From an uncultured Planctomycetia bacterium (GTDB lineage: Bacteria; Omnitrophota; Gorgyraeia; 1-14-0-20-64-10): a stretch of DNA of 64,000 nucleotides. The position numbers and the translations under genes are program-made. The stretch covers positions 133,655 through 197,654 of the forward strand of contig CAZQXN010000001.1 in NCBI GenBank assembly GCA_964597545.1, read 5' to 3'. Shown here one piece after another: positions 12,838 to 62,720 of this stretch (positions are counted from its first letter, which is position 1; every line of letters begins with the position of its first letter). The notes beneath the pieces were generated by a model. That model searched no databases. It was not told where the DNA came from and worked only from the letters and a program-made list of their open reading frames with translations.

Positions 12838-12891
12838 AGCACTCGGCTTACATCCGAGAGGTCACAGGTTCGAGCCCTGTTTCGCCCACCA
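12815..12891 (+). tRNA. tRNA-Val (anticodon TAC)
   Basis: Cloverleaf read by hand. Acceptor GGGCGAA/UUCGCCC, D-arm GCUCAGUUGGUUAGAGC, anticodon stem CUCGG/CCGAG with loop CUUACAU, T-arm ACAGG-UUCGAGC-CCUGU, encoded CCA. Confidence 0.85.
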
Positions 12892-12951
12892 CCTTTCTGA
12901 AAAGACAGACTGGCCAATTCTCTCAATTTGCTCTAAGATGGATACTCTTCC

Positions 12952-13030
12952 GGGGTCGTAGCTTAGTCCGGTTCAAAGCGCCTGCCTGTCACGCAGGAGA
13001 GCGCGGGTTCAAATCCCGTCGGCCCCGCCA
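12952..13030 (+). tRNA. tRNA-Asp (anticodon GTC)
   Basis: Acceptor GGGGUCG/CGGCCCC, anticodon stem CCUGC/GCAGG with loop CUGUCAC, T-loop UUCAAAU, discriminator G, encoded CCA. Confidence 0.85.
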
Positions 13031-17375: not shown

Positions 17376-17440
17376 AAAACCTGCTGGAAAGACCAATCCC
17401 TCGTTCGTCTTTGCAATCACCTGATAAGGAGAGCCAATTC

Positions 17441-20400: not shown

Positions 20401-20680
20401 CGGCCGCCCACACATTGTGGATGCCATCAAGAACGGGGAGATTCAATTGGTGGTCAATACCCCCAGCGGCAAGGCAGCCCAAGAGGATGATTCCTACATC
20501 CGCAAGGCCGCCATCAAGTACAAGATCCCTTACATTACGACCCCGGCCGCGGCACTGGCTACCGCCAAAGGGATTGCCGCCCGGAGCAAGGGAGAGGCTG
20601 GGGCGAAATCGCTACAGCGCTATCACCGTGACATCGCCGGAGCCGGGAGCAAGTGCCCGCCCGCTACCGTGGATGCGTAG
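17441..20680 (+). CDS. carB: Carbamoyl-phosphate synthase large subunit (paralog 1, standalone)
   Basis: [37 protein letters not shown] is the canonical CarB N-terminus. Two ATP-grasp halves plus an MGS-like C-terminus. AAGGAG SD sits 7 nt before the ATG at 17441. The TTG at 17411 is rejected. Confidence 0.9.
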   Translation: MPKRQDINKVMIIGSGPIVIGQACEFDYSGTQACKALRSLGYKIVLVNSNPATIMTDPGMADATYIEPLNTRALEEVLAAERPDGLLPNLGGQTGLNLSFELAKSGILKQHGTQVIGVNIDAIERGEDRTAFKETMNRLGIEMPKSEAVNNVEDAERVAEILGYPVVVRPAYTMGGTGGGLAYNTEELRTVASRGLSASRANQVLIEESVLGWEELELEVVRDSKNQMITVCFIENVDAMGVHTGDSYCTAPMLTIDPALQKRLQKHSYDIVEAIGVIGGTNIQFAHDPKTGRVVVIEINPRTSRSSALASKATGFPIAFVSSLLAGGLTMDEIPYWRDGTLEKYTPSGEYVVVKFARWAFEKFRGIEDKLGTQMRAVGEAMSIGKNYKEALQKSIRSLEIKRYGLGFAKDFHQKSLDELFALLATPTSERQFLMYEALRKGADVQKLYALTAIKPWFIEQMKALVELEMELIKHRGALPPDDLLKQAKQDGFADKYLAQILNTKEEEIRNRRKALGVVEAWEPVPVSGVENAAYYYSTYNAPDRVAVSKRKKIMVLGGGPNRIGQGIEFDYCCVHAAFSIRDAGYESIMVNCNPETVSTDYDTSDKLYFEPLTVEDVLSIYEKEKPEGVIVQFGGQTPLNIAQELAEAGVKVLGTSPATIDLAEDRDRFRQMMRKLNIPQPESGMASNLEEALETAKTIGYPLMVRPSYVLGGRAMEVVEDEEMLKEYVQAAVDVSPERPILIDRFLENAIEAEADALSDGTDAFVPAVMEHIELAGVHSGDSACVIPPVSIPQQHLDIIRDYTRKIAIELGVVGLMNIQYAIANDTVYVLEANPRASRTVPLVSKVCNVPMARLATQLILGQKLSDLKLTHSKIFHFGVKEAVFPFNMFPETDPLLGPEMRSTGEVLGMADSFGLAFFKAQEATQLILPLKGAVLFTIAEKNKPQVVKSARIFSELGFSIRATEGTQQFLTKHGIASELILKIGHGRPHIVDAIKNGEIQLVVNTPSGKAAQEDDSYIRKAAIKYKIPYITTPAAALATAKGIAARSKGEAGAKSLQRYHRDIAGAGSKCPPATVDA

Positions 20681-38005: not shown

Positions 38006-38984
38006 CCATCCGAGCTACCCCCTCCTCCAACCCAACACAGGCAGACCACCCGGTCGCGGCTTTGAGCTTCCCTGTATCGATGGTGAAATCCCCTGTCTCG
38101 ATCTGCTCGTAATCTTTGGGCCAGGGGGTATGGATGATTTTGCCCGAGCCCACCGCCTTGACCACCGCTTCCACCATCTCCCGGAAGGTGCGGGATTGGC
38201 CGTGACCGCAGTTTACAACCTCCCCGGTCGTCTGATCAGAGGCCAGGGCAGCCAAGATAGCGTCGGCAAGGTCGGTCGCATAGAGGTAATCCCTGCGCTG
38301 ACTGCCGTCACCAAAGATTGTAATCTCCTTGTCCTCCATGGCGCAGCGCATGAACCACCCGGGCAGGGAGTACTTGTTGTGTTTGATCTGCTGGCGCTCT
38401 CCGTAGGGGTTGGTCAGCCGCAGCACAACGGTCCGGATGCCATAATCCCGATGATAAAAGAGGTGGTATTTCTCTGTGGTCAACTTGTGGATGCCATACA
38501 GGGTCAAGGGATTGGTGGGGTGCTCCTCGGTAACGGGGTTATGCAGGATCTTGCCCAGCACCATCCGGGAGCTGGCAAAAAGCACCTTCGCATCGGCATT
38601 GTATTTTCGGCAGGCCTCCAACACCACCAAGGGCCCCCGGCAGTTAACATCCAAGTCTTCAAAGGGGATCTTGCCGCTGTCGATATAGCTGATCTGTCCG
38701 GTGAGGTTGATGATGAAGTCCTGCCCGACCACCAGATCTTTTACGAGCGCCTCATCTCGGATGTCTCCTCGCACCACGCGCAGGGTGTGTTGGAATGGGG
38801 CGACATTGGCGGGGTTGCCTCCATACCGGGGATCCAGGGAGTCCAGCACTGTGATGGCGGCATTGAGCCCGGCCAGGCGCGCAATGACATTGCTGCCGAC
38901 AAAACCTAACCCCCCGAGGATCAAGAGCTTCTTGCCCCGGAAATGGTCTTGAGGAAATTGCGGGGTATCGTGCGCCGCGGTCAT
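37959..38984 (-). CDS. NAD-dependent epimerase/dehydratase (extended SDR) inserted in the pyr operon
   Basis: [16 protein letters not shown] matches the GxxGxxG motif. A YxxxK motif follows. The ATG at 38984 overlaps the carB2 TGA stop in an ATGA arrangement. The low-complexity N-terminal extension in the track is rejected. Confidence 0.6.
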
Positions 38985-41900
38985 TTGTGGGCCGCCGCCC
39001 GGCGCCGGGGCTTGCGGGGCCGGCTGCTGCTTATTTTGATCTTCTTGTGCCACTCCTGTACGGAGCAAACCTCAAACCCCTTGGAGCGCAGCGCGTAAAT
39101 CCCTGCGGCTAAGGCATCCGCTCCGGGGATCGTAGTGACACAGGGAATTCCTCGGGAAACCGCCAGGGAGCGGATCCGGGTTTCATCGACCTTGGTAGCC
39201 TTGCCGGAGGGGGTATTGATGATCAGATCCACCTTTTCATCCCTTAGGAAATCCAGCACGTGCGGCCGTCCTTCATAGATCTTCTTTACCACTTGGGTCT
39301 CCACATGGTGCCGCTTTAAGTAATCGGCAGTCCCCTGTGTCGTCACAATCTTAAAACCCATCGTCACCAACTGCCGGGTAAATCCCGCGATGAGCGGTTT
39401 ATCCTGATCTTTGACGCTCAAAAAGACCGTCCCGGATAAAGGCACCTGCTGATAAGCGGCCATCTGCGACTTGGCAAAGGCCAATCCGAAGCTGGCATCA
39501 ATGCCCATGACCTCGCCGGTGGAACGCATCTCAGGCCCTAAGATGATATCAACACCAAAGAAGCGGGAAAAAGGAAAAACCGATTCCTTAACAGCGGTAA
39601 AGGGCGGGGTAATCTCCTTTGTCGCCCCCTGCCCGGCCAAGGTATCCCCTGCCATGATCTTGGTGGCAATCTTGACCATCGGCATGCCGATGGCCTTGGC
39701 AATAAAGGGAACCGTTCGGGAAGCCCGAGGGTTGACCTCAAGAACATACACCTCGGCCCCCTTGACCGCAAACTGGATGTTCATCAGCCCCCGGACATTG
39801 AGCTCCTGGGCCAAGCGGCGGCTGGCTGCCCGAATCTCCTCCACCACCTTGGGTGCTAAGGTGTGGGGCGGCAGGGCCATCGCCGCATCTCCTGAGTGTA
39901 CACCCGCGGCTTCGACATGTTCCAAAATTCCACCTACCAGAGAAGTTTTCCCGTCTGCAATCATGTCGACATCCACCTCGACGGCATCCTCCAGGAACTT
40001 GTCCACCAAGACCGGGCGCTCCGGAGGGGCCTGGACCGCCGATGCCATGTAGGCGCGCAAATCGGTCTCGTCGTAGACAATCTCCATGGCCCGCCCACCC
40101 AACACATAGGAGGGGCGCACCAGGACCGGGTAGGTGAGCTGCTTGGCAATTTCTAGGGCCTCGCCCGGAGTCCGGGCAGTTCCGTTGGGGGGCTGCTTGA
40201 GCTTGAGGCGATGGATCATCTCGCTGAACTTCTCCCGGTCCTCGGCCCGGTCAATCTCCTCTGGGGCGGTTCCGATGATGGGGACCCCGGCTTGGCTTAA
40301 CGCCAGGGCGAGGTTGAGGGGGGTTTGACCCCCAAGCTGAACAATGACCCCGGCCGGTCGCTCAGCCTCAACAATGTTGAGGACATCCTCCAGGGTCAAC
40401 GGTTCGAAGTAGAGGTCATCAGCGGTATCGTAATCGGTGGAAACCGTTTCAGGGTTGGAGTTGACCATGATGGTGCGATAGCCGGCCTCCCTCAAGGCAA
40501 AGACTGCCCGGACACAGCAGTAGTCAAATTCAATCCCCTGTCCGATCCGGTTGGGGCCGCCGCCTAAGATCATGATCTTCTTCTGGGCTTGAGCGTCACG
40601 CGGTGTGGGGGCTGTACGCTCAGGAGTCGCTGCGCTTTCGAGGGCAGCCGCCACCGCTGGGCGCTCATAGGTCGAGTAGTAATAGGGGGTAAAAGCTGCG
40701 AACTCCGCAGCGCAGGTATCCACCATATAGAAGAAGGGCCGGATGTTGTGCTGAAGCCTCAAGGCCCGGATCTCCATCTCAGACTCACCCCAGAGAAAAC
40801 CCAGCTGCCGATCACTGAAGCCGTATTGCTTGGCCGTCCATATCAACTCCGGGGTGGGCTTGGCCCCCTGGAGCTGGCGTTCCATCTCCACAATCTGCCG
40901 AATCTCCCGGATGAACCAGGGGTCGATTTGGGTGAGCGCAGTCAACGTTTCGTCCGAAAAACCATCCAGCATGGCTTGTCGGATTCGAAAAATTCGTTCT
41001 GCATGAGGGATGCGGAGCCTCTCTTTGAGCGCCTCAGCCCCTAGCGGTGAGGACTCCTTCCCCCCTGCCCCCAACCCGAAGTGACCGGTCTCTAAGGACC
41101 GTAACCCTTTCTGCAGCGCTTCCTTAAAGGTCCTGCCAATGGCCATGGCCTCTCCAACCGACTTCATCTGGACCGTTAGGGTGGGATCCGCCGCTGGAAA
41201 CTTCTCAAAGGCAAAACGCGGAATCTTGACAACACAGTAATCCAGGGTGGGTTCAAAAGAGGCTGGGGTCTGACGCGTGATATCGTTGGGAAGCTCATCT
41301 AGGGTGTAGCCCACTGCAAGCTTGGCCGCAATCTTGGCAATGGGAAAACCGGTTGCCTTGGAGGCCAGGGCTGAGGAGCGCGAGACCCTTGGGTTCATCT
41401 CGATCACCACGCGGCGCCCGGTTGCAGGGTCCACCGCAAACTGAATGTTGGAACCCCCGGTCTCAACCCCGATCGCCCGAATGCAGGTAATGGCTTCATT
41501 GCGCATCGCCTGATATTCCTTGTCGGTCAAGGTCTGGGCCGGGGCCACGGTGATGGAGTCGCCGGTGTGCACCCCCATGGGGTCCAAGTTCTCAATCGAG
41601 CAGATGATCACGACGTTGTCGTTCTTATCCCGCATGACCTCCAACTCAAATTCTTTCCACCCCGCTACCGATTCTTCAATGAGCACTTCAGAGACCATGC
41701 TCAGGCTCAACCCCGCCTCGGTCGTGGCCTGAAACTCTTCCCAGTTGTAGGCTATGCCTCCGCCGGTTCCGCCCAAGGTGTAGGCCGGCCGGATCACCAC
41801 CGGTAAACCGATGGCTTCAGCCACTACCTTGGCCTCCTGCAGAGTGTGGGCAACACCGCTGCGAGGTACATCCAACCCGGCCTCCTGCATGGCCCGCTTA

Positions 41901-42295
41901 AAATCGTCACGATCCTCAGCCTTCTGAATGGCCTGCTGGTCGGCGCCGATCATCTCTACGTTGTAGCGCTTGAGCGCCCCACTCTGGGCTAACTGCATGG
42001 CGACATTTAAGCCGGTTTGTCCGCCCAGGGTAGGCAGCAGGGCATCCGGGCGCTCCCGAGCGATGACCTTCTCGATCGCTTCAGGGGTAATGGGTTCAAT
42101 GTAGGTTCGATCCGCAAATTCCGGATCGGTCATGATGGTGGCGGGGTTGGAGTTGACCAGAACCACCGAATAGCCCTCTTCTCTCAAAGCCTTGCAGGCT
42201 TGCGTCCCGGAATAGTCGAACTCGCAGGCTTGGGAGATGATGATCGGACCCGAGCCGATGATCAGAATCTTTTTGAGGTCAGTCCGCTTGGGAAT
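38981..42295 (-). CDS. carB: Carbamoyl-phosphate synthase large subunit (paralog 2, pyrimidine-operon copy) with non-canonical start
   Basis: Full-length CarB (...[37 protein letters not shown]...). An in-frame TAA at 42320..42322 lies 9 codons upstream of the conserved PKRTD. No ATG/GTG/TTG occurs between them. The only candidate start is ATT at 42295 with GGAGA 7 nt upstream. The track starts at an internal TTG at 42187. Confidence 0.8.
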
Positions 42296-51177: not shown

Positions 51178-51875
51178 CAGGTCAAATCACAGAACCAAAA
51201 ACCATCGCGCTCAACCACCTCTCCTCGGTTGATCTGAATGGGCCGGCGAAAGATCGGTCCGTCATAGACAAAGGTATGAAACTCTCCATTCTCTCCGCAG
51301 GGGTCAACCCCCTCCGGAAGATCGTCAAGGAATCGCTGGTCATACTCCCGCCCACAAAAAGAGGGGTCTACCTGCTTGGGATCCACGCAAACCACTACCG
51401 CCTTAAAACCGGCCTCAATAAAATACCGGGCAAGGCTTCGGGTCTCCTTCTGCCACAAGGGAAAGATCCCTTGCATATCGACCCGGCTTAAGTTCTTCTC
51501 CCGATAGCTTCGGATATCCTCTAAGAACAGATCCCCGAATCCCACTCGCTTAATCCCCTTGGCCTGGTGGCGCGCGAGGAGGTTGCGCATCGCCTCTTCA
51601 TACGCCTCATTAGAGGCCTGGGGTGGAATACGAACCTGCTCCAGGGACAGCTCAAGCGAGGCAGCCTGCTGCTCCAAAAGACGGCACCGAACTCCATGCA
51701 TGCTGATTCGCTCATAACCCTCGGTCACGGTGGTGATCAACCCCTTGACCCGAAGGGCGGGCTCCTTAAGCAAAACCTCCAGCGCCAGGGCGCTGTCCTT
51801 ACCTCCGCTCCAGCCTACAAGGATTGGTTCAGTGGAAATGGTCAGCTTTTCGGTTCGATCTTGCAGGAGGGGCAC
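51177..51875 (-). CDS. PP-loop ATPase of the Dph6/MJ0570 (DUF71) family
   Basis: ILVGWSGGKDSALAL matches the SGGxDS PP-loop. Confidence 0.5.
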   Translation of the reverse strand: MPLLQDRTEKLTISTEPILVGWSGGKDSALALEVLLKEPALRVKGLITTVTEGYERISMHGVRCRLLEQQAASLELSLEQVRIPPQASNEAYEEAMRNLLARHQAKGIKRVGFGDLFLEDIRSYREKNLSRVDMQGIFPLWQKETRSLARYFIEAGFKAVVVCVDPKQVDPSFCGREYDQRFLDDLPEGVDPCGENGEFHTFVYDGPIFRRPIQINRGEVVERDGFWFCDLT

Positions 51876-52081
51876 AGCTTAAAAAGCGAGACCAGGCTGA
51901 TCACTCCTGCCAAGCCAATCACCGCGTAGACCACGCGGGAAGCAGTGCTCATCGGCCCGAGCAACCCGGCCACCAAATCGATCTGGAAGATCCCAACCAA
52001 CCCCCAGTTGATCGCCCCGATAATCACCAAAATGGGCGCCAGCTTACAACCCGGACATCCTGTTTCTTGTGTCATCGTCAC
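51842..52081 (-). CDS. DUF378-family small membrane protein
   Basis: GAINWGLVG motif and two TM helices. Confidence 0.45.
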   Translation of the reverse strand: MTMTQETGCPGCKLAPILVIIGAINWGLVGIFQIDLVAGLLGPMSTASRVVYAVIGLAGVISLVSLFKLCPSCKIEPKS

Positions 52082-52243: not shown

Positions 52244-55200
52244 ATGGGGAAATCTTTCACCAGAATCTTTACCCTTTTGCTGGCGCTAAGCCTTGCCCTG
52301 CCAAGTCCTGCTTGGGCCCTGCGCAGTCAAGAACCCATAGAGACTACTGCAGCCACTGGGCTCGAAGAGGCCCTCTCCGGCCGGAAGGAAGGGGAAGCGC
52401 ACGTTGATGGCCACCTCATAGCAAGGCGCTTCGCCGAGCTGCTCAGGGAGGGGCGGACCAACCCAGCAATTCACTCTGGCGCGCCCTCCTCAAAACCGCT
52501 TCAGCGAGACGACATTACGCGAACCGACGCCAGAGAGGTGGTTTGGGAGTTGAGCGAAAAGGCGCTTAAGGGTGCGCTCAACGAACTGTGGGAGCGAGTG
52601 CTGCGGCACTCCGCTTATTGGAGACAGTTCCGCAAAGAGATCGATGTGGGCGCGCTCGGTCCAAAATATATAGAGCAGGGAATCGTCGATCACCTGTTCT
52701 CCATCTTAAGACACCCATTGGCCAATGCCGTTGATGCCTTGGTGCGAGCGTCCTATCCGGTTTTCGAGGATGCCGAGATTGCCGTCCTATGGTCTGTGCG
52801 GGGGCAGGAAATCCGGATTCAGATTTTGGATACAGGCTCTGGAATCGCCCCGGATGCCCTTGGTGTGCTGGGTCAAGAACTCATCGAAAACGACAAGGCG
52901 GACGAACTGGGGTCTTTTGGGCGGCAGGGGCGCGGGGCGTTCATTGCTGCGCGCTTGGCTGCAGCAGAAAATTGGCAGCTCAGTTTCGCCAACCGCGATG
53001 GCACAGGGGGCGCTGTCGTATCGCTGATTATCCCCCTCACCCCCACCCTCTCCGGCCAGGAGGAAACTTGGGAATTAAAAATCCAAGCCGGTTATACCGA
53101 TGCTCAAGTGACCGTTTTAGGCGTGGGCTTTATCGGCAGCCGAATCATGCAGCGTCTTTTGGGCTCCTACGGAGCGCTGGTCCGGACGGTCAAGGGAACC
53201 ACCACGAAAGCTTCTGAAAATCTCGCCACTCGGTTCTCCGATTTCCCCGCCTACCCGAAGCTGGCTCCAATCCAAGGAGATCACCGCAATGCCGAAAGCG
53301 TTCGCCGGTTCATTGGGGACTCCAAAGTCATCCTAGATACTGCCGGTCTTGCTTGGCAACACAAATCCGGGGGCAAGCCCGCCACCTTGGAAGAGGAGCT
53401 GCTCCAGAATGCAGCCAGCGCGGCGCTGATCGGACAACTGCTGGGTTCCTATCAGCGCCTCGTCTGGACCTCCAGCAACGCGGCCGATTACATGTTGGCT
53501 CGATTGCGCACTCATGAACAAGCTGTGCTCCTGAAAGAAATCGACGAGCGCGCCCGGCGCTACGTTCAATTCTCCAAGGGCCTTCCCTCTCAAGAAGCGT
53601 GGGGTGATTTCGTCCGACAGGATTTAGCTGAGTTTCAACCGCAAACTTTTGAAAAAGGCCCTAATCAAGCGGCAGCGGTCTTTGCAAAGGCATTCAGCTA
53701 TCCTTACTCCAAGCGGCTGGGGGAGCGAATATTAGAAATTGTATCGGAGGATCCAGAGAAAGACATCTGGGTGCTCAGGATCTCAGATGTATACGGCCCA
53801 GGCCAAGGTTTAGGGAAGGAGTTCTGGCATCCGGAGCGCGAGCGGCGGAAAGCAGCCAGGCGTCCACAATGGTTCATGGCGATTTTTGAAGCGATTCGCA
53901 ACGGGCAATTTGAGCCCTGGAAAACGGGGCAGGATTTCTTTCAAAGCAAGAACGAGCAGACCATCTACAACGACTTTGTGGCCCCTGTTTATATTGATGA
54001 TGTCGTGGAGATGATCCTGCGCGCCTCTGTGTTGGAAAAAGATTCGGACACTCCAGGTTCCGCAGTCCTCCAACTAAGCGCCCCGTGGATGACCAATCAG
54101 GCGATGGCCGAAACTATTGCCCAACAGGTCGGAATCGATCTGAACATTGCTGTGGGGGATCCGATCCTTCGACAGCAGCCGCTGGCAGCAAATTCGGGCT
54201 TGGCCCTTTTGGGCATGCAGGGAGAGCTTACCTCTTTTGAGGATGGGGTGGCCCGCCATTTGGACTGGTGGCGCCAGCCTCAGGTCCCCGCCGGCCAGGA
54301 GGAGAAACGAGCGCTGGCTCGGCATCTGAGGGATTGGGTAATCCCTCGGCTGCGGGCTCAGCTCCAGGCGGAGGAACAGATCGGTGTCGGCCGTCTGCGC
54401 AGGACGATCGGCGAGATTCAAAGCGACCAACCCTTTATCCAGGGAGGGGTGGCCTATGTGCCTGCTCGCCAAGGCCGATTGATTGTCCTTGGGGATCTCC
54501 ACGGAGATCTGGTCATGTTTGAGAAGATCCTTGACCAAGTGGGGTACGACCCCGAGATCAATCCAACGCTTCCGCCCGAACTTCAAGCGCACCTGGTGAT
54601 GGCTGGGGACCTTGCGGAGGGGGGTAGGCAGAACATCAAGCTGGCCAATCGGCTGGGGGAAATCAAGCTGAAGGATCCGAATCACGTCATCTTCGCAGGG
54701 GGCAACCACGACCAGGAATTGGTTCTGTGGGATTCACCGATCATCTCGAAGTATCCTCATTTCACCTTCTTGTCCAAAGAGCTGGCTGACCTGTTGGGGC
54801 CGGAGGAGGGAATGTCGATCTACGGGGATTGGAATGGTCTTGGGCGCGCACTTCCGGTCCTGATCGCTTTCCCCAACGGGATCGTCGTTGTGCATGGAGG
54901 GGGGCCCTCTCTGGCAAATCCTCCGCCACCTGGGCTTCCAGAGCAATTCCGCACCACCTTCAGCCCCGAAGCGGGCCTGTTGGGCATTGAGAATCCCATC
55001 ATCCAGGACCAGATGTCGTTTAACTTCCTGTGGGGATCCCACCTGGCTCGTTCCATGCCTGAGGTTGATGAGGTGATCGCGCTCAGCTCTAGAACCAGCG
55101 AGCGGGGAATGCACCCCGGCTTCTGGATCTCGCGGAACAGCCATTTTGGGTTCCTGGATTCGATTGGGGGGAAGGTTTTGGTTCGGGGACACGACTCCTG

Positions 55201-58200
55201 GGCCCCTCACGATCAAGTGTTCTACGATGGGACCGTCTTAACGCTTCAGTCCACCGATTATCGCTCACCAGACCACGCCTTCCAGAGGGATCGTCAACTG
55301 ATCGGCCGCTACGCTGAGTTCGATTTAAGCCAGACCTATGACCGGATTGATCCTGAGGGGGTAGTCAAGTATCTGTCCTGGGCCTCCGGCCTGGAGGAGG
55401 ATATTGCGGCCGAGGCGGCCGCTCTTCAAGAAGAGGGTCGGCCATTCAAGTTGGACCTGCATTGGCACGGCGTCGATCCGGATGGAAGATATCAAAAGGA
55501 CGGCAATGTCTCTCTTGTCAGCATTGGGTTCGACAGAGGGCGAGCGGATGTGCGGGGTGCCGCGCAACATGTGCAGCAAGCGCTCAGGCAGGCCACGGAT
55601 CATCCAGATGTGCGCATCGTAGCCGGCGGCAGCGAGAACTATGTTGCTGTCCTGCTGCCGCGGAAGCCTTGGGGGATGGAACGTGTTGCGCGCGAAGAGC
55701 TTCCGGGTGACCTCTCAGAGTGGCTCACTGTCATTGTGGGCGATTCCCTGGGCCTGGACTTTCTCTCTCTGGAACAGCAAGAGCGGTTCCCCACAGCATC
55801 CCTCCAGATATTGGTTCAGGGAAAGGAGGCCGTCTTGCCGCCTCACGCTGAAGAGGTCGTTCTCGCCAAGAAGGGCGGCGACGGTGTGGATGCCCTGCTG
55901 ACAGATCTGCTTCGGGTAATCGAGCGGGGCGGGCAGTACCAGGAGGTGGAATCCTTTGGAGAGCAACTGCCAGGGGACTTCCAGGATAAAGCCCTTAATC
56001 CTAAAAGATTGCATCTTATCTTTGATGTCGACAGCACGTTGATGGCCTCACTGGACACGTTTGATGCGCAGCAGCACGGAAAGCAGGGGCAGGAATTTAA
56101 GGGGGAGCGGCTGGAGAATATCGCCCGTCTGGCGGAGCGCGGCGTCTTCTTCAGGTTTGGAAGCGGCAAGGCCTTAGAGGAGGTCTCCGGTGACCGAGCC
56201 GTTCCTGACTGGGATCGTCTGCTGATCCCAGTTGTAAAGGCTTTCATGGATCGCAGGATCCCTGTGCAGCAAGTGGGATACGACGGCGTTTCCGGACAGC
56301 AAAAGGTGCGGGTGCGACCCGGAACAGAAGAACTGCGCTTTAGCCGAAGAGAGCTTCCGATCAGCCCGGATCGTCAGGTTTTTACGAATCAAGAGGTGAT
56401 ACGGCTCTTCCGCTTAGGCCTCCAGGCGGTCCAAGCCAATGCCAAGCCGACTCAACCGGGAGCCGACGCCGCCGGTCAGGAGGAGATAGCACAGGTTGCA
56501 GTAGAGGCTAGAATTTTAGCAATGGATCTAGGCGGAACTAACCTTCGGATCGGTTTGGTCAATAAGCGGACAGGAGAACTGTTTCCTGGAACGTTGCGCG
56601 CGCATCCCCTCGAATTCCTTCCGGGCACATCGCATGCCTCTGGTCGGAATGCCGAGGTGATCCTCCATCAGATTCTAACAGCTGCTCAAGCCTTATTGTC
56701 AGATATAGGGTTGGATTCTTTCGCTGAGATTGGAGGTGTCGCAGTGAGTATTGCCGGCAGCCTGAGGGAAGGGGAGGGGGTTGTTCGTTTTCAAGCAAAC
56801 CTCCCCTTTTCAGGACAGAATCTTGCTGCGCTCCTATCGCACCGGTTTAATGTTCCTCCGCAAGCCATTGTTCTTTCAAATGACGTAAGGGCTGGACTTC
56901 GAGCTGAGATGCACTATGGCGCGGGTCAAGGGCGCCGGGCCGGCTCGGTCGGATATTTCTCGGTGGGAACCTCCGCCAATGGGGCTTTTTTATCCGATAA
57001 GGGAGAAATAGTTAAGTTAGACTCAATTGATTTGATCAGATCGTGGATCAGGGAAGTCTCCATGCGTGCCGGAGGAATGCACCTACCACATCGGGCAGTA
57101 GAACAGGGAATGCCCTCAGCCACTGTTGGGACAACACAACAGGTTTGGGAGCAGGCGCAGGCGAGCCATGAAACTGCCAAAAAACTTATTCGGAAAGCAG
57201 CTGAGTCGATAGGAGAGGCTCTCGTCAAGATTACGGAGGCCGTAACAAAAGAGCAGGAGTTTCTTTGGATCCTCGGTGGCGGTGTGGTTGAAGGAATGGG
57301 TGAGCCGTTTGTTGAACAAATTCGGGCTTCAGCCGATCAGGAGCTCCATGAATCCCGTCGTGGACAAAGAATTACCATTTGTCTCTCTCCGTTGGATGGC
57401 CGAGAACGAGGGCTTCGTGGTGCAGCTTTGAGCGTTGCCGCCGGGCTGGAGGAGCAGGTTTCCCAGCGGGATGCGGCCGATATTAATCTGCTTTTCCAGC
57501 ATCTGGCCAACCCGGTAGATCAGCGGCAGATGCCCGAAACGTTCGATGCGGTCGTGGTCCTTGGTAATCCGAATCCTCAGCAAAATGGGGCGGCGGCGGC
57601 CGAAGCGATCCATCAGTTTAAACCAAGCTTCGTTGTGATAACAGGCACAGCCGAAGAAACACCTCAGTTTAAGAACGTGCTGTCCCAGCACGGCATTAAG
57701 GATCTCATCGAAGATGCAGCTGCGAGGCATACGGGGGACAATGCTCGAAACAGCGCCCGACTGCTGAAACCCAAAGGGCTTCCCGATTCCCCGAACATTC
57801 TTCTGGTCTCTGACCCACTGGCGGCAACCATCGCTCTGCGATTTTTCGAGCTGCAGTTTGCAGATGAATGGGGAGGGCCGGCAAATTTCTACAGCTACAC
57901 AGCCTCGTTGCCTAGCGTAACACCGGGAACGAACCGTAGCGAATTGGGAATGCAAGTGCAAGCGGGGATCAATATTTTTAGGAGCCTTAACGACTATGCT
58001 GGCACGTTCATTTCGGATCACGAAGCAGATCGGGATCCTCAAGTGGCCGCAGCGGTGCAGCGGCTTCGTGACCAAAACTATACCGCCGGCCAGGAGGAAA
58101 GCGCACTAGCGCAGGCTTTGTCCGACCCTGAGGTGCAAGCGGGCCTGGAGGACAAGGGCTGGGCCCAAACGAAAGCGCTGGGGCCAACTGTCTTTGTTGG

Positions 58201-58597
58201 GGACCCAACCCAGCTGAGAGCGCCAATCGGGTGGCTCTTTCTGCACGCAGGACTCAATAGACCAAAGGGGCTCTCTCCCAATACGCCGGTGGTTCGGATG
58301 CGCGCGGACAGCGTCCCGGAAATGCTTGTCTTTTATGATGAGCAGAAGCTCTCCGGAAGGGATGTGTCGCTGGTCAACATGACTCTGGTTACCCCGGAGG
58401 AGGTCTGGGCCTCTTTGCCGGTTACCGATGACCCGCATGCAGTGATCGGGGCCTTGAGCGGGGCTGAGCCGAATGCCGCGGAGACCAAACTACTTGCGGT
58501 TATCTCTCGCCGGGTGGGACCGATTTTTAGCTGGAAAACCACCCGCTATACCGCCCAAGACGGGCGGACCTACCTCGTCATCCAAATCCAGGTGTAA
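52244..58597 (+). CDS. Giant (2117 aa) signal-peptide multi-domain protein: GHKL-ATPase-like / SDR epimerase / PPP-family metallophosphatase / ROK sugar kinase / DUF218 / novel conserved C-terminal domain
   Basis: Signal peptide MGKSFTRIFTLLLALSLALPSPAWA. GHKL boxes: LANAVDAL, ILDTGSGI, GSFGRQGRG. SDR: VLGVGFIGSRI, YPYSK. PPP phosphatase: LGDLHGD, AGDLAEGG, GGNHD, VVHGGG, VRGHD. ROK: ILAMDLGGTNLRIGLV, NDVRAGLRAE. DUF218: AVVVLGNPNP...HTGDNARNSARLL...ILLVSDPLAATIA. C-terminal ~155 aa are shared with ORF 60980..62608. Confidence 0.6.
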   Translation: MGKSFTRIFTLLLALSLALPSPAWALRSQEPIETTAATGLEEALSGRKEGEAHVDGHLIARRFAELLREGRTNPAIHSGAPSSKPLQRDDITRTDAREVVWELSEKALKGALNELWERVLRHSAYWRQFRKEIDVGALGPKYIEQGIVDHLFSILRHPLANAVDALVRASYPVFEDAEIAVLWSVRGQEIRIQILDTGSGIAPDALGVLGQELIENDKADELGSFGRQGRGAFIAARLAAAENWQLSFANRDGTGGAVVSLIIPLTPTLSGQEETWELKIQAGYTDAQVTVLGVGFIGSRIMQRLLGSYGALVRTVKGTTTKASENLATRFSDFPAYPKLAPIQGDHRNAESVRRFIGDSKVILDTAGLAWQHKSGGKPATLEEELLQNAASAALIGQLLGSYQRLVWTSSNAADYMLARLRTHEQAVLLKEIDERARRYVQFSKGLPSQEAWGDFVRQDLAEFQPQTFEKGPNQAAAVFAKAFSYPYSKRLGERILEIVSEDPEKDIWVLRISDVYGPGQGLGKEFWHPERERRKAARRPQWFMAIFEAIRNGQFEPWKTGQDFFQSKNEQTIYNDFVAPVYIDDVVEMILRASVLEKDSDTPGSAVLQLSAPWMTNQAMAETIAQQVGIDLNIAVGDPILRQQPLAANSGLALLGMQGELTSFEDGVARHLDWWRQPQVPAGQEEKRALARHLRDWVIPRLRAQLQAEEQIGVGRLRRTIGEIQSDQPFIQGGVAYVPARQGRLIVLGDLHGDLVMFEKILDQVGYDPEINPTLPPELQAHLVMAGDLAEGGRQNIKLANRLGEIKLKDPNHVIFAGGNHDQELVLWDSPIISKYPHFTFLSKELADLLGPEEGMSIYGDWNGLGRALPVLIAFPNGIVVVHGGGPSLANPPPPGLPEQFRTTFSPEAGLLGIENPIIQDQMSFNFLWGSHLARSMPEVDEVIALSSRTSERGMHPGFWISRNSHFGFLDSIGGKVLVRGHDSWAPHDQVFYDGTVLTLQSTDYRSPDHAFQRDRQLIGRYAEFDLSQTYDRIDPEGVVKYLSWASGLEEDIAAEAAALQEEGRPFKLDLHWHGVDPDGRYQKDGNVSLVSIGFDRGRADVRGAAQHVQQALRQATDHPDVRIVAGGSENYVAVLLPRKPWGMERVAREELPGDLSEWLTVIVGDSLGLDFLSLEQQERFPTASLQILVQGKEAVLPPHAEEVVLAKKGGDGVDALLTDLLRVIERGGQYQEVESFGEQLPGDFQDKALNPKRLHLIFDVDSTLMASLDTFDAQQHGKQGQEFKGERLENIARLAERGVFFRFGSGKALEEVSGDRAVPDWDRLLIPVVKAFMDRRIPVQQVGYDGVSGQQKVRVRPGTEELRFSRRELPISPDRQVFTNQEVIRLFRLGLQAVQANAKPTQPGADAAGQEEIAQVAVEARILAMDLGGTNLRIGLVNKRTGELFPGTLRAHPLEFLPGTSHASGRNAEVILHQILTAAQALLSDIGLDSFAEIGGVAVSIAGSLREGEGVVRFQANLPFSGQNLAALLSHRFNVPPQAIVLSNDVRAGLRAEMHYGAGQGRRAGSVGYFSVGTSANGAFLSDKGEIVKLDSIDLIRSWIREVSMRAGGMHLPHRAVEQGMPSATVGTTQQVWEQAQASHETAKKLIRKAAESIGEALVKITEAVTKEQEFLWILGGGVVEGMGEPFVEQIRASADQELHESRRGQRITICLSPLDGRERGLRGAALSVAAGLEEQVSQRDAADINLLFQHLANPVDQRQMPETFDAVVVLGNPNPQQNGAAAAEAIHQFKPSFVVITGTAEETPQFKNVLSQHGIKDLIEDAAARHTGDNARNSARLLKPKGLPDSPNILLVSDPLAATIALRFFELQFADEWGGPANFYSYTASLPSVTPGTNRSELGMQVQAGINIFRSLNDYAGTFISDHEADRDPQVAAAVQRLRDQNYTAGQEESALAQALSDPEVQAGLEDKGWAQTKALGPTVFVGDPTQLRAPIGWLFLHAGLNRPKGLSPNTPVVRMRADSVPEMLVFYDEQKLSGRDVSLVNMTLVTPEEVWASLPVTDDPHAVIGALSGAEPNAAETKLLAVISRRVGPIFSWKTTRYTAQDGRTYLVIQIQV

Positions 58598-58600
58598 AGA

Positions 58601-60709
58601 CTATACCGAGCCCCGGTAGGATTCTGCTGCCCGGCCAAAGAGATGGGTGGTCAGCTGGCAGGTGCACGCGAATACAAAGGTCGCAAAGAGATAGCTCTCT
58701 TCTGCCAACCGCCAGATGAGTTTCAGAGGGTTTAAGCGATCGAGCCGCCCCCTCCGGAGACTGGCTCCTGCCTCCTTCCAAAAGCGCTCAATAGGTTTGC
58801 GCGACCAGGTCAAAGAGGTGCTGAAGGGGTTGTGCTGCCGGATCCATAGCCAAAGGCGGGAAGGAACGCGCTGACTGCGGCGCACCATGTGCTGTGCGCA
58901 GGCCTTCCGGCGGCGGGCAAAGGCAACGGCCCGCTGATAGGCCCACTGAAGCTGGCGCTGGCGCAGCTGGCGCCATTGCAACACATCGGCGTGGCGCTTG
59001 CGGAGGTGCTCCACCACCAACCGCTCCACATCGCTGCGGGGGTGGGTCTGCAGCCAAAGCTCCTCGAGCTCAAAGAGTAGGTCTAACCAGCGCCTTGCGA
59101 AGGTCCGGCAATCCCTAAGGCGCCGCTTGAAATATTGCCAACGTCCTTCTATCGGCCAGCCCGGCCTGCGCTCAAGCCGGTGCCGAAGCTTAAAGAGGCC
59201 GTGGATCATGGGGTGACCCTGCTCGACCACAATGGCGTTCTTGTGCCAGAGGAGGTTGGCAAAAACCTTCCAGTAATTCTCAGCTGAAACCCGCCGGAGT
59301 ATCGCCTTCATGTTCTCCATGTCATAGAAAGAGACCCTGGCCTCGGCATAGGCCCCCCTCCATTCTTCTTGGGTCATCCGGGGGTGCTCAACGGTGGCAT
59401 GGCAGGTGTTATAACGGTTGAGGTCCGGATCCAGGGCTACCCCGCGGCGGATCAAGTCGGCATGGTCCTTGGAGCCGGGTAAGGGGGTCAGCATAAAGAA
59501 AGAGACCTGGTCGGGTGCCAGGGTGGTTTTTAGGGTCTCGATGTCCCGGCGCACCGACTCTCTGGTGTCGAACGGGAAACCGATGATGTAGGCCACGTGC
59601 GTGTTGATCCCTCCCGCACGGTAGGTGCGGATGGCCTCGCCAAACTTTTCGGTCCGATTCTGCCGCTTCTCGGCGGCCACGAGGTTGTCGGAGTTTAGGC
59701 TCTCCACCCCTAAGAAAACCTGGGTGCAGCCGGCCGCTTTGGCCTTCTCGATAAACCGGGGGGATTTGTACGACTGGGTATCCACCTGAATCATGAAGGA
59801 AAGTTTAATCCCCTCCTCCTTGTGCAGGCGGATCAAGGCATCAAAGATCGCCTCCCAGTGTCTGTTTCTGAAGAAGTTGTCATCTGAGAAGAAGTAATAA
59901 GAAATCTTGCGCCGGTGGTAATTGTCTCGAATCAGCTCCACTAATCGCTCCACCTCTCTGAATCGCATCTTGCGCCCCTGAACATTGATCACGGTGCAGA
60001 AGGAGCAGGCAAAGGGGCAACCCCGGCCGCAGTCTAGGGTGCCGAGATTGGGAGCTAAGAAGCGTTTTCTGTACCGCTCGCCCACCTTAGGCATGGGGGC
60101 GCTTTTTAAGTCGGGTGGGGAGCCCAAAAAGTTGTATACCTGCTGTCGCTTGCCCTCCAGCACATCCCGCAGGATACCCTCCCAGCGGCCCTCGATCTCG
60201 CCGGCAACCACCGTAACCCCGGCATCGATCAAGCGCTGGATCTCGGTTGGGATTTGAGGCAGCATGGCGATCGAACCACTCACATGGAAACCGCCGATTA
60301 AGACATCGACTCCGCCTGCGCGAAGCTGGAGCGCCAAGTCTGAGGCCCGGGCAAATTGGCATGACTGCACTCCAACCAAGCAAGTGACAACGTTGGTGTG
60401 TGGGTCGCGAGCGGCACGGAAGATCTTTTGGAGGCTAACCCGCTCCAGTGTCTCGTCGATCAGTGTGACCTTCCACTGGAGAGGCCCCAGGGCTTCTCTC
60501 TGGCGGACATCTTCGGTGAGGCCGTGCAGGCAGGCCAAGGTGTTGCTGGGCAGAAGTCCGCGCCAGTAACGGATGACATAGCCGTCATCGTCATACTGCG
60601 AGGGCTTGATCAGATAGATCGCCAGCCGTCGGATCTTGGGTTGGGTAAGTAGTAATGTCTTCATCTTAAAATCTGCTGTAACGAAATATCCCCGTGGGAG
60701 GGTAATCAT
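58601..60709 (-). CDS. B12-binding radical SAM protein (class B, DUF4070-type) with ~200-aa basic/aromatic C-terminal extension
   Basis: N-terminal B12-binding Rossmann-like region. Radical SAM core CGRGCPFACSFCTV (CxxxCxxC). C-terminal extension ends in a hydrophobic segment. Likely true start is MKTLLLTQP at 60664. Its stop lies 3 nt from the giant gene's stop (convergent). Confidence 0.65.
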   Translation of the reverse strand: MITLPRGYFVTADFKMKTLLLTQPKIRRLAIYLIKPSQYDDDGYVIRYWRGLLPSNTLACLHGLTEDVRQREALGPLQWKVTLIDETLERVSLQKIFRAARDPHTNVVTCLVGVQSCQFARASDLALQLRAGGVDVLIGGFHVSGSIAMLPQIPTEIQRLIDAGVTVVAGEIEGRWEGILRDVLEGKRQQVYNFLGSPPDLKSAPMPKVGERYRKRFLAPNLGTLDCGRGCPFACSFCTVINVQGRKMRFREVERLVELIRDNYHRRKISYYFFSDDNFFRNRHWEAIFDALIRLHKEEGIKLSFMIQVDTQSYKSPRFIEKAKAAGCTQVFLGVESLNSDNLVAAEKRQNRTEKFGEAIRTYRAGGINTHVAYIIGFPFDTRESVRRDIETLKTTLAPDQVSFFMLTPLPGSKDHADLIRRGVALDPDLNRYNTCHATVEHPRMTQEEWRGAYAEARVSFYDMENMKAILRRVSAENYWKVFANLLWHKNAIVVEQGHPMIHGLFKLRHRLERRPGWPIEGRWQYFKRRLRDCRTFARRWLDLLFELEELWLQTHPRSDVERLVVEHLRKRHADVLQWRQLRQRQLQWAYQRAVAFARRRKACAQHMVRRSQRVPSRLWLWIRQHNPFSTSLTWSRKPIERFWKEAGASLRRGRLDRLNPLKLIWRLAEESYLFATFVFACTCQLTTHLFGRAAESYRGSV

Positions 60710-60772: not shown

Positions 60773-60850
60773 GTGTAGCTTCCTGGACGACTTTAGAACT
60801 TTCTGTAGGGGCCGGGAAGCATCCGGCAAGTTGGCCGAAATAACCCGCGC
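60773..60850. repeat. Direct repeat DR1 (~80 bp) upstream of the paralog gene
   Basis: GTAGCTTCCTGGACGACTTTAGAACTTTCTGTAGGGGCCGGGAAGCATCCGGCAAGTTGGCCGAAATAACCC is ~80% identical to DR2. Confidence 0.6.
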
Positions 60851-60979: not shown

Positions 60980-62608
60980 ATGAAAATGCGTAGAACCGCT
61001 CTAAAGATCGTGATGGTTGTCCTGGTGGCCAAGCTTGTCCTGCCCAACCCTGCCTGGGGACTACGAGATTCCATCGAGGATGAAACCCCAGGTGGGTTGG
61101 CAGCTGCTTTTGGAATTACTGCCGCTGGGCTGGAGGAGAATCGGCCGCTGGCGATTAACCGAAAAGCTATTCCGGTTCGAACGGCCGCTTTCTCGTTCGA
61201 GAACCCGGCAGAAATACAGGCGGTTGACCAGAAGTTGGGTGAAGCGGCTAGGTTATTCTCAGAAATCGGGTGGTTTGACCGCCATCCGGAATCATTCCAG
61301 CACACCACCGAGATCTCTGCGCACGGAAAGCGTTCGGGCATTGGAGGGTTGGCTTCTTCTGATCGCCCAGGAGAGCTATGGGTTCGAACTGAAGGCCTTC
61401 CTGTTTTGGAAGTTGTGAATACGCTAGCCCATGAAGATCGGCACAATGCGATCTATGCCGGCGCGCGTTGGGCGCGGATTGTAGAACACGAGGGTGCGAT
61501 TCCGACTCGCTTCGATCACCGCTGGTGCCCGGATGTCAGGCCTTCGGCCAGAGACCTGCTGAACGAGCTGGATGCATACGTGTTTTCCCTCCCCATTTCT
61601 CTTCAGATATGGGAGGCGAAACTGCTACCTGAAACCCCTTTGGCGGTTGAGGAGCTTTTCATGCTGTTGTTCCGGGCCGAGGAGGCAATCCGGCTTCTCG
61701 AGGAAAGCCGAGAAAAGGTCCTGAATGAGGATGGGGCGACGTGGCTGGAAGAATTAAAACCTTTGTGGGCCAGGCGGAGAGAGGCGGTTGAAACCCGTTG
61801 GGATTGGGACTCCGTGATGGCCTCTCTTGCAGGCTCTCAGGAGGAAGCAGTTCGCGCGATTTGGTACTTCCATGTGGGGGAGCTCTGGAAGGCCCGCCCA
61901 AATGAACAAACAGCTTATGAAGCGCTGTTGATCCAAACGCTCGCCAAAGAACGCAACCCGGTTTTCCTGCAGGAGGAAGTAGGCAAACAGCTTTCCCTCC
62001 TGGAAATGCCGGTAAAATTGCAAGAGCTGGTTGAGGCGCGGTATCTTTCGCTGACAGACAAAGGCGTGGAGCATCTTTCCGCTGATGCGTCCCTCATCGA
62101 CCAGCTAAAGGATACCGCTGGACTGGAGGAGGTGGGGCAAATAGTGACATCTCCGGAGGTGCAAGCCGGTCTCAAAGCTGCTGGATGGGCTTCCCTTGGA
62201 GAGGGTCGTTACGTTGTGAATCCCGCTAGACTCCAAGGATCCATTGGGCGACTCACTCTACATGCAGGGCTTGAGGAGCCGGATGGAGTTCCAGAGAACG
62301 CGATGGTTCGCATGGAAGCTGGTTCAGCCTCGGAGATGATCGCTTTCTATCGGGAACATCAACTGGGGCGAAATGACGTCGTCTTGGTCAACATGAAGCT
62401 TGTAACCCCAACAGAGGTGCTTGCTTCACTCCCCCTCAGCACACCATTCGCTGTGCTCGGCTCTACCCCCCAAGAGCGTCTTGCCTTGGGGACTCTCCTG
62501 TTCCTTGCGGAACTTTCCCGTAACATCGGCCCTATCCTACACGCTGACATCCGACCTTTTACCGCAGAGGATGGTCGATCTTACGTTCTGGTTGATATTC
62601 AAGCGTAA
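60980..62608 (+). CDS. Secreted paralog (542 aa) sharing N-terminal LPxPAW[AG]LR motif and C-terminal ~155-aa domain with the giant protein; contains an HExxH motif
   Basis: Signal peptide MKMRRTALKIVMVVLVAKLVLPNPAWG. TLAHEDRHNAIYAG. C-terminus PEVQAGLKAAGW...LHAGLEEP...VRMEAGSASEMIAFY...VVLVNMKLVTPTEV...TAEDGRSYVLVDIQA aligns at ~45% identity with the giant protein C-terminus. Confidence 0.5.
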   Translation: MKMRRTALKIVMVVLVAKLVLPNPAWGLRDSIEDETPGGLAAAFGITAAGLEENRPLAINRKAIPVRTAAFSFENPAEIQAVDQKLGEAARLFSEIGWFDRHPESFQHTTEISAHGKRSGIGGLASSDRPGELWVRTEGLPVLEVVNTLAHEDRHNAIYAGARWARIVEHEGAIPTRFDHRWCPDVRPSARDLLNELDAYVFSLPISLQIWEAKLLPETPLAVEELFMLLFRAEEAIRLLEESREKVLNEDGATWLEELKPLWARRREAVETRWDWDSVMASLAGSQEEAVRAIWYFHVGELWKARPNEQTAYEALLIQTLAKERNPVFLQEEVGKQLSLLEMPVKLQELVEARYLSLTDKGVEHLSADASLIDQLKDTAGLEEVGQIVTSPEVQAGLKAAGWASLGEGRYVVNPARLQGSIGRLTLHAGLEEPDGVPENAMVRMEAGSASEMIAFYREHQLGRNDVVLVNMKLVTPTEVLASLPLSTPFAVLGSTPQERLALGTLLFLAELSRNIGPILHADIRPFTAEDGRSYVLVDIQA

Positions 62609-62642
62609 TCCTTTGCAGGAAAAACAGTTACAGGAAATTATG

Positions 62643-62720
62643 TAGCTTCCTGGACGACTTTAGAGCTTTTTGTAGGGGGCAAGAGGCTCGTAAGTTGGCT
62701 GAGATAGCCCTATGCTGATT
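62643..62720. repeat. Direct repeat DR2 (~80 bp) downstream of the paralog gene
   Basis: GTAGCTTCCTGGACGACTTTAGAGCTTTTTGTAGGGGGCAAGAGGCTCGTAAGTTGGCTGAGATAGCCC. Confidence 0.6.

Follow-up and report, generated by a model that had tools for sequence, protein, structure and literature searches.

How one bacterial gene comes to carry a row of metabolic enzyme domains behind a secretion signal, and whether these serve one pathway, one permanently fused protein or several separate ones, is the question raised by an open reading frame (ORF) of 2117 amino acids (aa) in a 64,000-nucleotide stretch (the window) of contig CAZQXN010000001.1 from an uncultured bacterium of the Omnitrophota lineage. The Omnitrophota are uncultivated, apparently host-dependent nanobacteria, whose very large proteins with many domains are acknowledged to be puzzling. 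On sequence grounds, the ORF belongs to a small, fast-changing modular family of Omnitrophota-type (PVC-group) bacteria, and we consider it probable that it is one gene for a Sec-exported, modular string of enzymes from a family that shuffles its modules. A compact member of some 2 kaa, with a leader, a junction and a terminal domain, offers a testable rule for parsing the giant proteins, as well as evidence that such proteins evolve by module swapping at junctions.

One gene with six modules and a terminal domain

The ORF (52244..58597, + strand) starts with ATG and spans 6354 nucleotides (nt) in one frame uninterrupted by a stop codon, as the initial annotation had reported, and represents one genuine gene. 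It is highly improbable that adjacent genes were fused here by a sequencing or assembly error or on a chimeric contig. The exact 2117-aa product is recorded from one NCBI contig only, which would fit such an artefact, but the frame is stop-free throughout, the guanine plus cytosine content is uniform, no start codons or restarts resembling ribosome-binding sites occur at the module boundaries, and a composition with one cysteine and a single junction layout extend through all modules. Furthermore, comparable multi-module genes are found in independent assemblies, with the relative P0001 (2639 aa; NCBI name Candidatus Omnitrophica protein) being identical in one NCBI and two Logan assemblies.

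The N-terminus (MGKSFTR-IFTLLLALSLAL-PSPAWA, followed across the predicted cut by LRS) has the n-, h- and c-region layout and the AxA site seen in signals for Sec and signal peptidase I, as judged by inspection and hydropathy, with no lipobox cysteine and no RR. The predicted Sec signal peptide covers aa 1-25 (52244..52318, +; MGKSFTRIFTLLLALSLALPSPAWA) and precedes a conserved L-R at aa 26-27. It is the sole strongly hydrophobic 19-mer of the protein, with one marginal segment at aa 865 falling within the phosphatase module. Both this pattern and the cysteine depletion described below are consistent with the signal peptide that had initially been proposed for the N-terminus.

Pfam analysis of the whole protein and of its segments, using the curated cut-offs, recovered all five enzyme domains named in the initial annotation above threshold, while NCBIfam matched the same families at sub-threshold level only. 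All modules lie on the + strand. The first, M1 (aa 43-269; 52370..53050), is a GHKL-type ATPase with a HATPase_c domain (PF02518; aa 151-266; E 2.1e-8; 35.0 vs cut-off 26.4 bits), an N-box (LANAVDA at 161) and a G1 box (DTGSG at 196). No HisKA-type domain, as would define a sensor histidine kinase, was found in the ORF with Pfam or NCBIfam, which yielded only partial, sub-threshold matches to kinase C-termini. M2 (aa 275-682; 53066..54289) is an extended SDR protein of the NAD-dependent epimerase/dehydratase type (Epimerase, PF01370; best stretch aa 290-381; E 3.3e-7; 30.4 vs 20.9), with the motifs GVGFIG at 293 and YPYSK at 486.

M3 (aa 688-1047; 54305..55384) is a calcineurin-like metallophosphoesterase (Metallophos, PF00149; aa 745-984; E 4.5e-11; 44 vs 21.5), for which no solved relative was found by sequence. 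The initial annotation had assigned it to the PPP family, and the motifs it quoted are all present (GDLHG 750, GDLAEGG 788, GNHD 820, HGG 884 and RGH 981), as is the DLGGT of the kinase module at 1428. The metal-ligand motifs of M3 are intact and the module belongs to the metallophosphoesterase superfamily, but the D-R pair of the PPP motif GDxVDRG is replaced in GDLAEGG, and membership of the PPP family in the strict sense is not established. M5 (aa 1415-1732; 56486..57439) is a putative ROK-family sugar kinase (PF00480; best stretch aa 1469-1577; E 9.4e-11; 42.2 vs 22.9) carrying that DLGGT motif. Since the sole cysteine of the protein is located at aa 1713, the cysteine-rich zinc motif of ROK kinases, CxCGxxGCxE, is impossible in this module. 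Its nearest solved relative is a polyphosphate/ATP-glucomannokinase (1woq; E 1.9e-5), a lead which may point to an energy source other than ATP. M6 (aa 1738-1947; 57455..58084) is a DUF218/YdcF-like module (PF02698; aa 1768-1877; E 1.1e-10; 41.9 vs 27.6).

Three features had been overlooked: a sixth module, a conserved C-terminal domain and a repeated junction pentapeptide. The sixth module, M4 (aa 1053-1409, ~357 aa; 55400..56470), has no assigned family and no PDB match by sequence. It may be HAD-like, given a weak DxDxT signature (DVDST, aa 1261) and sub-threshold matches to DUF2608 in Pfam (E 0.21) and to an FCP1-like model in NCBIfam (E 0.15). The C-terminal domain (aa 1948-2117, ~170 aa; 58085..58594, +) begins with a junction copy and ends in IQIQV. 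A role as an anti-phage defence component was also considered and dismissed, with no PADLOC match for either the 2117-aa ORF or the 542-aa ORF located downstream of it.

A pentapeptide at every module boundary

A pentapeptide of the form [A/S/T]-G-[L/Q/M]-E-E is found at every module boundary of the ORF and just past the signal peptide. The first junction, J1 (TGLEE, aa 38-42; 52355..52369), is situated 12 residues past the predicted signal cleavage and is followed by ALSGRKEG, a degenerate second junction. M1 and M2 are separated by J2 (SGQEE, aa 270-274; 53051..53065), M2 and M3 by J3 (AGQEE, aa 683-687; 54290..54304), M3 and M4 by J4 (SGLEE, aa 1048-1052; 55385..55399), M4 and M5 by J5 (AGQEE, aa 1410-1414; 56471..56485) and M5 and M6 by J6 (AGLEE, aa 1733-1737; 57440..57454), all on the + strand. 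J7 (AGQEE, from aa 1948) opens the C-terminal domain, within which a second copy (AGLED, aa 1966-1970) is conserved in part and a third (AGLNRP, for which relatives have GLEEP) is degenerate.

The eight copies J1 to J7 and AGLED compare with 0.06 expected, and none of 20,000 shuffles of the protein reached eight. In the six frames of the window, the pattern [ASTP]G[LQ]E[ED] occurs twelve times: eight times in the ORF, three times in the neighbouring 542-aa ORF (60980..62608; 0.02 expected) and once outside ORFs of at least 200 aa. It is absent from the 20,702 aa of the other window ORF segments of at least 200 aa. Among 140 sites in 40 proteins, the position preceding the glycine (-1) is A (75), S (28), T (19), G (9) or V (8), and the glycine is followed by L (111), Q (26) or M (3), then by E and finally by E (135) or D (5), with unconserved flanks. 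Literature searches for the pentapeptides returned unrelated matches only, such as the DTAGQEE of Ras.

At the DNA level, the junctions correspond to six copies of an 18-nt direct repeat, which are 83-100% identical. The glycine, leucine and glutamate codons differ among the sites, and site 1 (GGG CTC GAA GAG) lacks a Shine-Dalgarno-like string; because of this synonymous variation and of the exception at site 1, selection appears to act on the peptide rather than on an RNA signal. The motif as a by-product of an internal Shine-Dalgarno-like signal (GGAGGA) was dismissed on the same two grounds, and on the strictly in-frame occurrence of the copies. In the leaders of four related proteins (P0022, P0023, P0030 and P0016) and at a further related locus (L008), copies follow one another in tandem at intervals of 10-30 residues, without an intervening module. 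The strict conservation, the free flanks, the copy following the signal peptide and these module-less tandems together suggest that the junction is recognised by a trans-acting factor.

A family with shared ends and variable contents

A whole-protein search yielded only two partial relatives, covering 22% and 11% of the ORF, and no full-length homologue. Among clusters formed at 90%, the one that includes the 2117-aa protein has as its representative an unrelated-looking 46-aa JGI fragment (P0034), in what looks like a clustering artefact, and as a result of this choice of representative the ORF itself is absent from the homology-search results. A profile of the C-terminal domain retrieved 31 proteins (27 at E <= 1e-10) of 59 to 2603 aa from 1.84 billion cluster representatives, with the domain always at the C-terminus, and a word-indexed search with the domain alone gave no match. 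Scanning with the SDR module recovered three loci in genomes and none in metagenomes, and scanning metagenomes with the C-terminal-domain alignment recovered a further set of three.

The layout of the family consists of a signal peptide followed by A-x-[AG]-[LM]-R, a pentapeptide [AST]G[LQM]EE within ~25 residues, variable modules bounded by the motif, and a near absence of cysteine, and all of these are found in the ORF. A subfamily is distinguished by a terminal alpha/beta domain of ~165 aa at the extreme C-terminus that matches profile A3, as does the ORF, whose own C-terminal domain seeded this profile. The 31 profile proteins, P0001 and the ORF (33 sequences, 28,055 residues) contain the motif 113 times (4.0 per 1000 residues), and most of the full-length members begin with a hydrophobic signal, usually followed by A-x-[AG]-[LM]-R. 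The motif also occurs with a different C-terminal end at other Omnitrophota loci, namely in a 3113-aa protein adjoining P0001, in a pair of proteins at L008, and at L005, L006 and L009-L011.

Both P0001 and P0002 (2603 aa, from a JGI metagenome) carry a signal peptide, the motif shortly after it and different, motif-separated enzyme modules. The modules encountered among the relatives include FTHFS (formate-tetrahydrofolate ligase), FBPase (fructose-1,6-bisphosphatase), GHMP kinase, PGM, GNAT, HEAT, sugar dehydratase and hexapeptide-repeat transferase-like domains. Where modules are shared, their ends coincide with the motif. M1 is 61% identical to residues 455-680 of P0002, both ends of which are motif positions, and M2 is 51% (MAFFT) or 48% (BLASTP) identical to residues 2065-2491 of P0001, with SG[QL]EE at the start and AG[QL]EE at the end in both proteins. 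An M2-type SDR module is found again after [AS]GLEE at L005 and L006, and P0030 incorporates a complete, likewise motif-bounded FTHFS. No relatives of M3 to M6 were found within the collected family set. The pair at L008 (757-5493 and 5529-10442) represents tandem family members with 0 and 1 cysteine, which include between their junctions a complete FTHFS (Pfam E 1.6e-169) and a class II FBPase (FBPase_glpX). These are core cytoplasmic enzymes behind signal peptides.

The C-terminal domain of the ORF shares 45% identity with that of the neighbouring 542-aa ORF, 42% with that of P0004 and 32% with that of P0002. No Pfam or NCBIfam model matches the domain or the leader. An AlphaFold model built on a 28-sequence alignment (predicted local distance difference test, pLDDT, 95.7; predicted template modelling score, pTM, 0.90) adopts a generic CheY/flavodoxin-like fold, and Foldseek found nothing significant for it in the PDB or among viral models. 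The domain nevertheless differs from CheY-like receivers and flavodoxin-like proteins in its low sequence identity (4-16%) and two extra N-terminal helices, and from CheY-like receivers also in the lack of a Response_reg Pfam match and in a conserved asparagine at the position of the phospho-acceptor aspartate (alignment A5, by eye).

Cysteine is nearly absent from the string

The ORF contains one cysteine in 2117 residues (0.05%), as compared to 206 in 14,571 (1.41%) for 36 other genes of the window; at this background rate, one cysteine or fewer in 2117 residues has a probability of P = 2.5e-12. Similar depletion is seen in the neighbouring ORF (1/542), P0001 (3/2639) and P0002 (1/2603), and cysteine makes up 0.089% of residues in the 33-sequence family set. 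As a compositional argument, the depletion is independent evidence that one regime, typical of exported proteins, extends over the whole string. It thus lends support to the extracytoplasmic action, in the periplasm or at the surface, that the initial annotation had suggested from the signal peptide. The occurrence of cysteine-purged enzymes of cytoplasmic type behind a secretion signal, with even the ROK zinc site lost, raises the question of where they work and on what energy source.

A hypervariable locus rather than a fixed pathway

The P0002 gene occupies the same position in a related genome, next to a convergent radical-SAM gene. In the window this flanking gene (58601..60709, -; identified with Pfam) is conserved: the flank shares 92% protein identity with its neighbour on the related contig L001, and 89.4% nucleotide identity over 2243 nt from window position 58579, a block that sets in only ~18 nt ahead of the stop codon that ends the ORF. 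Within the gene, only two DNA blocks can be aligned to the P0002 locus: one of 131 nt for the leader, at 78.6% identity, and one of 690 nt for M1, at 75%. The GHKL module is the only enzyme module that P0002 shares with the ORF, its remainder being made up of SDR dehydratase, GNAT, HEAT-like and unassigned modules. The locus is hypervariable, changing far more rapidly than the sequences that flank it.

The two aligned blocks overlap at window positions 52375-52393, which correspond to the degenerate junction ALSGRKEG. The DNA at 52371-52390 matches that of J2 at 90%, and in P0002 an SDR dehydratase module is situated exactly at the ALSGRKEG position. Such an overlap is the trace expected if recombination at the motif-coded repeat had inserted or removed a module, and suggests that modules have been exchanged in this manner.

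These observations bear on what the enzymes do together. The initial annotation had read the chain of kinase, phosphatase, epimerase and DUF218 domain as a sugar-phosphate or sugar-nucleotide remodelling line, and the ROK, SDR epimerase, phosphoesterase and DUF218 modules can all be linked to sugar chemistry. Lipopolysaccharide (LPS) and glycan genes are also encoded in the window, and the modules of relatives include PGM, GHMP kinase, a sugar dehydratase and domains resembling hexapeptide-repeat transferases. A single dedicated periplasmic or surface pathway is nonetheless improbable. The same-position gene of a close relative shares only the GHKL module, FTHFS and FBPase are found in family members, and the 2117-aa gene has no operon partners, being flanked by pyrimidine and radical-SAM housekeeping genes. 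Because the gene at the same position and the other family members carry different, unrelated enzymes, the module content is better described as combinatorial than as a fixed pathway; the remodelling line was not upheld, and the modules of the ORF would not make up one dedicated pathway.

Cleavage site or structural connector

In the explanation that we consider probable, the protein would be exported by the Sec pathway and its signal probably cut between AWA and LR. The mature protein would comprise six independently folding, near-cysteine-free modules (GHKL ATPase, SDR epimerase, metallophosphoesterase, a possibly HAD-like module, ROK and DUF218), and would terminate in the family-specific alpha/beta domain. 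The pentapeptide at each boundary would be a functional signal conserved as protein, with the 15-20 nt that code for it providing the microhomology for module gain, loss and swap. As a recognition site, it would most likely allow the exported precursor to be processed into separate enzymes, in the manner of a bacterial polyprotein, and these would act outside the cytoplasm of the producer, in the periplasm, at the surface or in a host cell. Taken on its own, cleavage at the junctions into separate enzymes is a tentative proposal, to which we give a little less than an even chance, and which we rank above a purely structural connector.

The latter would entail a permanently fused, uncleaved exported scaffold, for example of a cell coat, with the pentapeptide as a helix N-cap connector starting each module. 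The logic of a helix N-cap (a small residue, glycine, a hydrophobic staple and two glutamates against the helix dipole) fits the motif, Pro-rich extended segments often precede the junctions, and extracellular coats of giant proteins have been proposed in the literature. Several observations weigh both for the scaffold and against cleavage. In the AlphaFold2 model, the AGQEE of J7 caps the N-terminus of a well-packed helix (residues 2-12, pLDDT >90) and makes up its first turn, while the second junction copy lies inside helix 2 (residues 15-24); the motif may thus be a structural helix start rather than a protease site. Furthermore, no conserved protease or secretion gene was found nearby in the window or at eight related loci. 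We regard the scaffold as rather unlikely even so. A helix cap needs no five fixed residues across otherwise unrelated modules and need not be absent from the 20,702 aa of other window proteins, and module-less tandem copies are better suited to a recognised linear motif.

Other points also count against an exported, processed enzyme string. Export is judged from the leader pattern and the cysteine depletion, only 31 cluster representatives make up the very small subfamily that has the C-terminal domain, and enzymes dependent on ATP and NAD are hard to reconcile with a periplasm, so that their destination is a puzzle. The candidate for a processing enzyme described below has an HExxH module for which the single-sequence AlphaFold2 model reaches a pLDDT of only 38.7.

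A bolder form of the processing proposal, which we consider unlikely, holds that these are true polyproteins cut by a lineage-specific peptidase, which would release reshuffled, cysteine-free enzymes acting outside the producer, perhaps in or on a host or prey. If so, kinases, phosphatases, epimerases and even FTHFS and FBPase, dependent on ATP, NAD or perhaps polyphosphate, would rewire the central and sugar-nucleotide metabolism of that host or prey, and the junction would give the missing cleavage and module map of the giant Omnitrophota proteins. Junctions that are processing sites would also represent a rare polyprotein strategy in bacteria.

Comparison with known modular proteins

The nearest mechanistic analogies appear to be the MARTX toxins and the viral polyproteins, although the parts that define these are absent from the ORF. 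In MARTX toxins, the ends are conserved and enclose an array of unrelated effector or enzyme modules that varies from strain to strain; these modules are exchanged by recombination, and the linkers are cut at a short recognition site (after leucine) to free the modules. The ORF family resembles these in its conserved ends, variable module array and short inter-module motif. MARTX toxins are, however, secreted by the type I pathway without a Sec signal, and have an internal cysteine protease domain as well as glycine-rich A/B/C repeats. Pfam and NCBIfam recovered no such domains from the ORF, a Sec signal is predicted instead and cleavage is only proposed, and the ORF is not classified as a MARTX toxin.

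Viral polyproteins have fixed cleavage motifs, and C39 peptidases process double-glycine leaders, in which a small residue precedes glycine. The junctions are similar in being short and invariant boundary motifs with unconserved flanks and a small residue followed by glycine, a likeness which may serve as a lead. They differ in that no C39 or other peptidase domain is encoded in the 2117-aa gene or in the window. C39 peptidase domains have been reported as frequent in the giant proteins of Omnitrophota.

Giant Omnitrophota ORFs, presumed to function in extracellular adhesion or predation, were the subject of Seymour et al. 2023 (PMC10066038) and of West-Roberts et al. 2023 (10.1101/2023.11.21.568195), the latter stating their cleavage points as unknown; module boundaries, too, are given as unknown in published work. 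A June 2026 preprint (10.64898/2026.06.07.730766) catalogued Omnitrophota proteins of at least 10,000 aa and defined a class of "multi-enzyme metabolic clusters" rich in HATPase_c, HAD, GNAT, PGM and ROK domains; 94% of the catalogued long proteins have signal peptides or transmembrane helices, and their function was left open. As compared with the published descriptions, the ORF appears to work like a small, signal-peptide-only version of this multi-enzyme class. Its relatives are labelled Omnitrophota, unrelated metabolic Pfam domains of overlapping families are tiled along it, an N-terminal signal peptide is common to both and sequence conservation is poor. By its length (2117 vs >=10,000 aa) it falls outside the class, and the giants, of at least 10,000 aa or encoded by ORFs >20 kb, mostly have transmembrane helices, whereas the ORF has a signal peptide only.

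The initial annotation knew of no described architecture like this one. The exact five-domain combination is indeed unique, the best matches covering 22% and 11% of the ORF, and this is to be expected because the family shuffles its modules, but proteins of this general kind had already been described (10.64898/2026.06.07.730766). The junction motif, the shared leader, the C-terminal domain and the cysteine depletion are not mentioned in that preprint, in 10.1101/2023.11.21.568195 or in PMC10066038. What appears to be new is thus the layout of leader, junction and terminal domain, together with the evidence for module exchange at the junctions.

The neighbouring family member and the surrounding window

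A small paralogous family member (P0003; 60980..62608, +) of 542 aa is encoded beyond the radical-SAM gene. It consists of a signal peptide, AAGLEE, an orphan module, TAGLEE and the same C-terminal domain. The orphan module, for which a word-indexed search found only itself and which matches no Pfam or NCBIfam model, contains an HExxH motif (LAHEDRH, aa 151). This motif is seen in a hydrophobic, zincin-like context in four members of the family that have this leader and C-terminal domain in common (the 542-aa ORF, P0006, P0011 and P0022), and occurs five times in 35,516 aa, as compared to roughly one expected on a composition-based estimate. The 542-aa ORF may encode a secreted metalloprotease, and is a candidate for the processing enzyme.

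The 542-aa ORF is bracketed by two direct copies of a ~65-nt repeat (GTAGCTTCCTGGACGACTTTAGAACTTTCTGTAGGGGCCGGGAGGC...; 60775-60841 and 62642-62705), the only two in the window. Five copies are found in L001 (10190, 11832, 12340, 13083 and 14840), each a short way upstream of a gene or operon on the minus strand. It does not fold stably (z = 0.46), lacks an Rfam match and may be a promoter or 5'-untranslated-region element, or the scar of a cassette insertion. According to the precomputed Pfam list, the gyrB gene of the same contig (L001, 17576-18012) contains an intein (Intein_splicing).

Immediately upstream of the 2117-aa gene, a small ORF (~51869-52078, -) in the divergent intergenic region encodes a hydrophobic protein of ~70 aa (MTQETGCPGCKLAPILVIIGAINWGLVG...) which, judged by eye only, resembles a DUF378-type membrane protein. 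Two full-length genes for the large subunit of carbamoyl-phosphate synthase are found in the window (17411-20680, +; 38981-42187, -), one of which forms part of a pyrimidine cluster with carA, pyrB, pyrC, pyrD/K, pyrF and a phosphoribosyltransferase gene. Elsewhere (11070-11975, -; 12815-13027, +), an IS481-type transposase (rve, LZ_Tnp_IS481) adjoins two tRNA genes, and beside this region lies an LPS/glycan block that encodes a Wzt/Wzm ABC exporter, WavE, methyltransferases and a glycosyltransferase.

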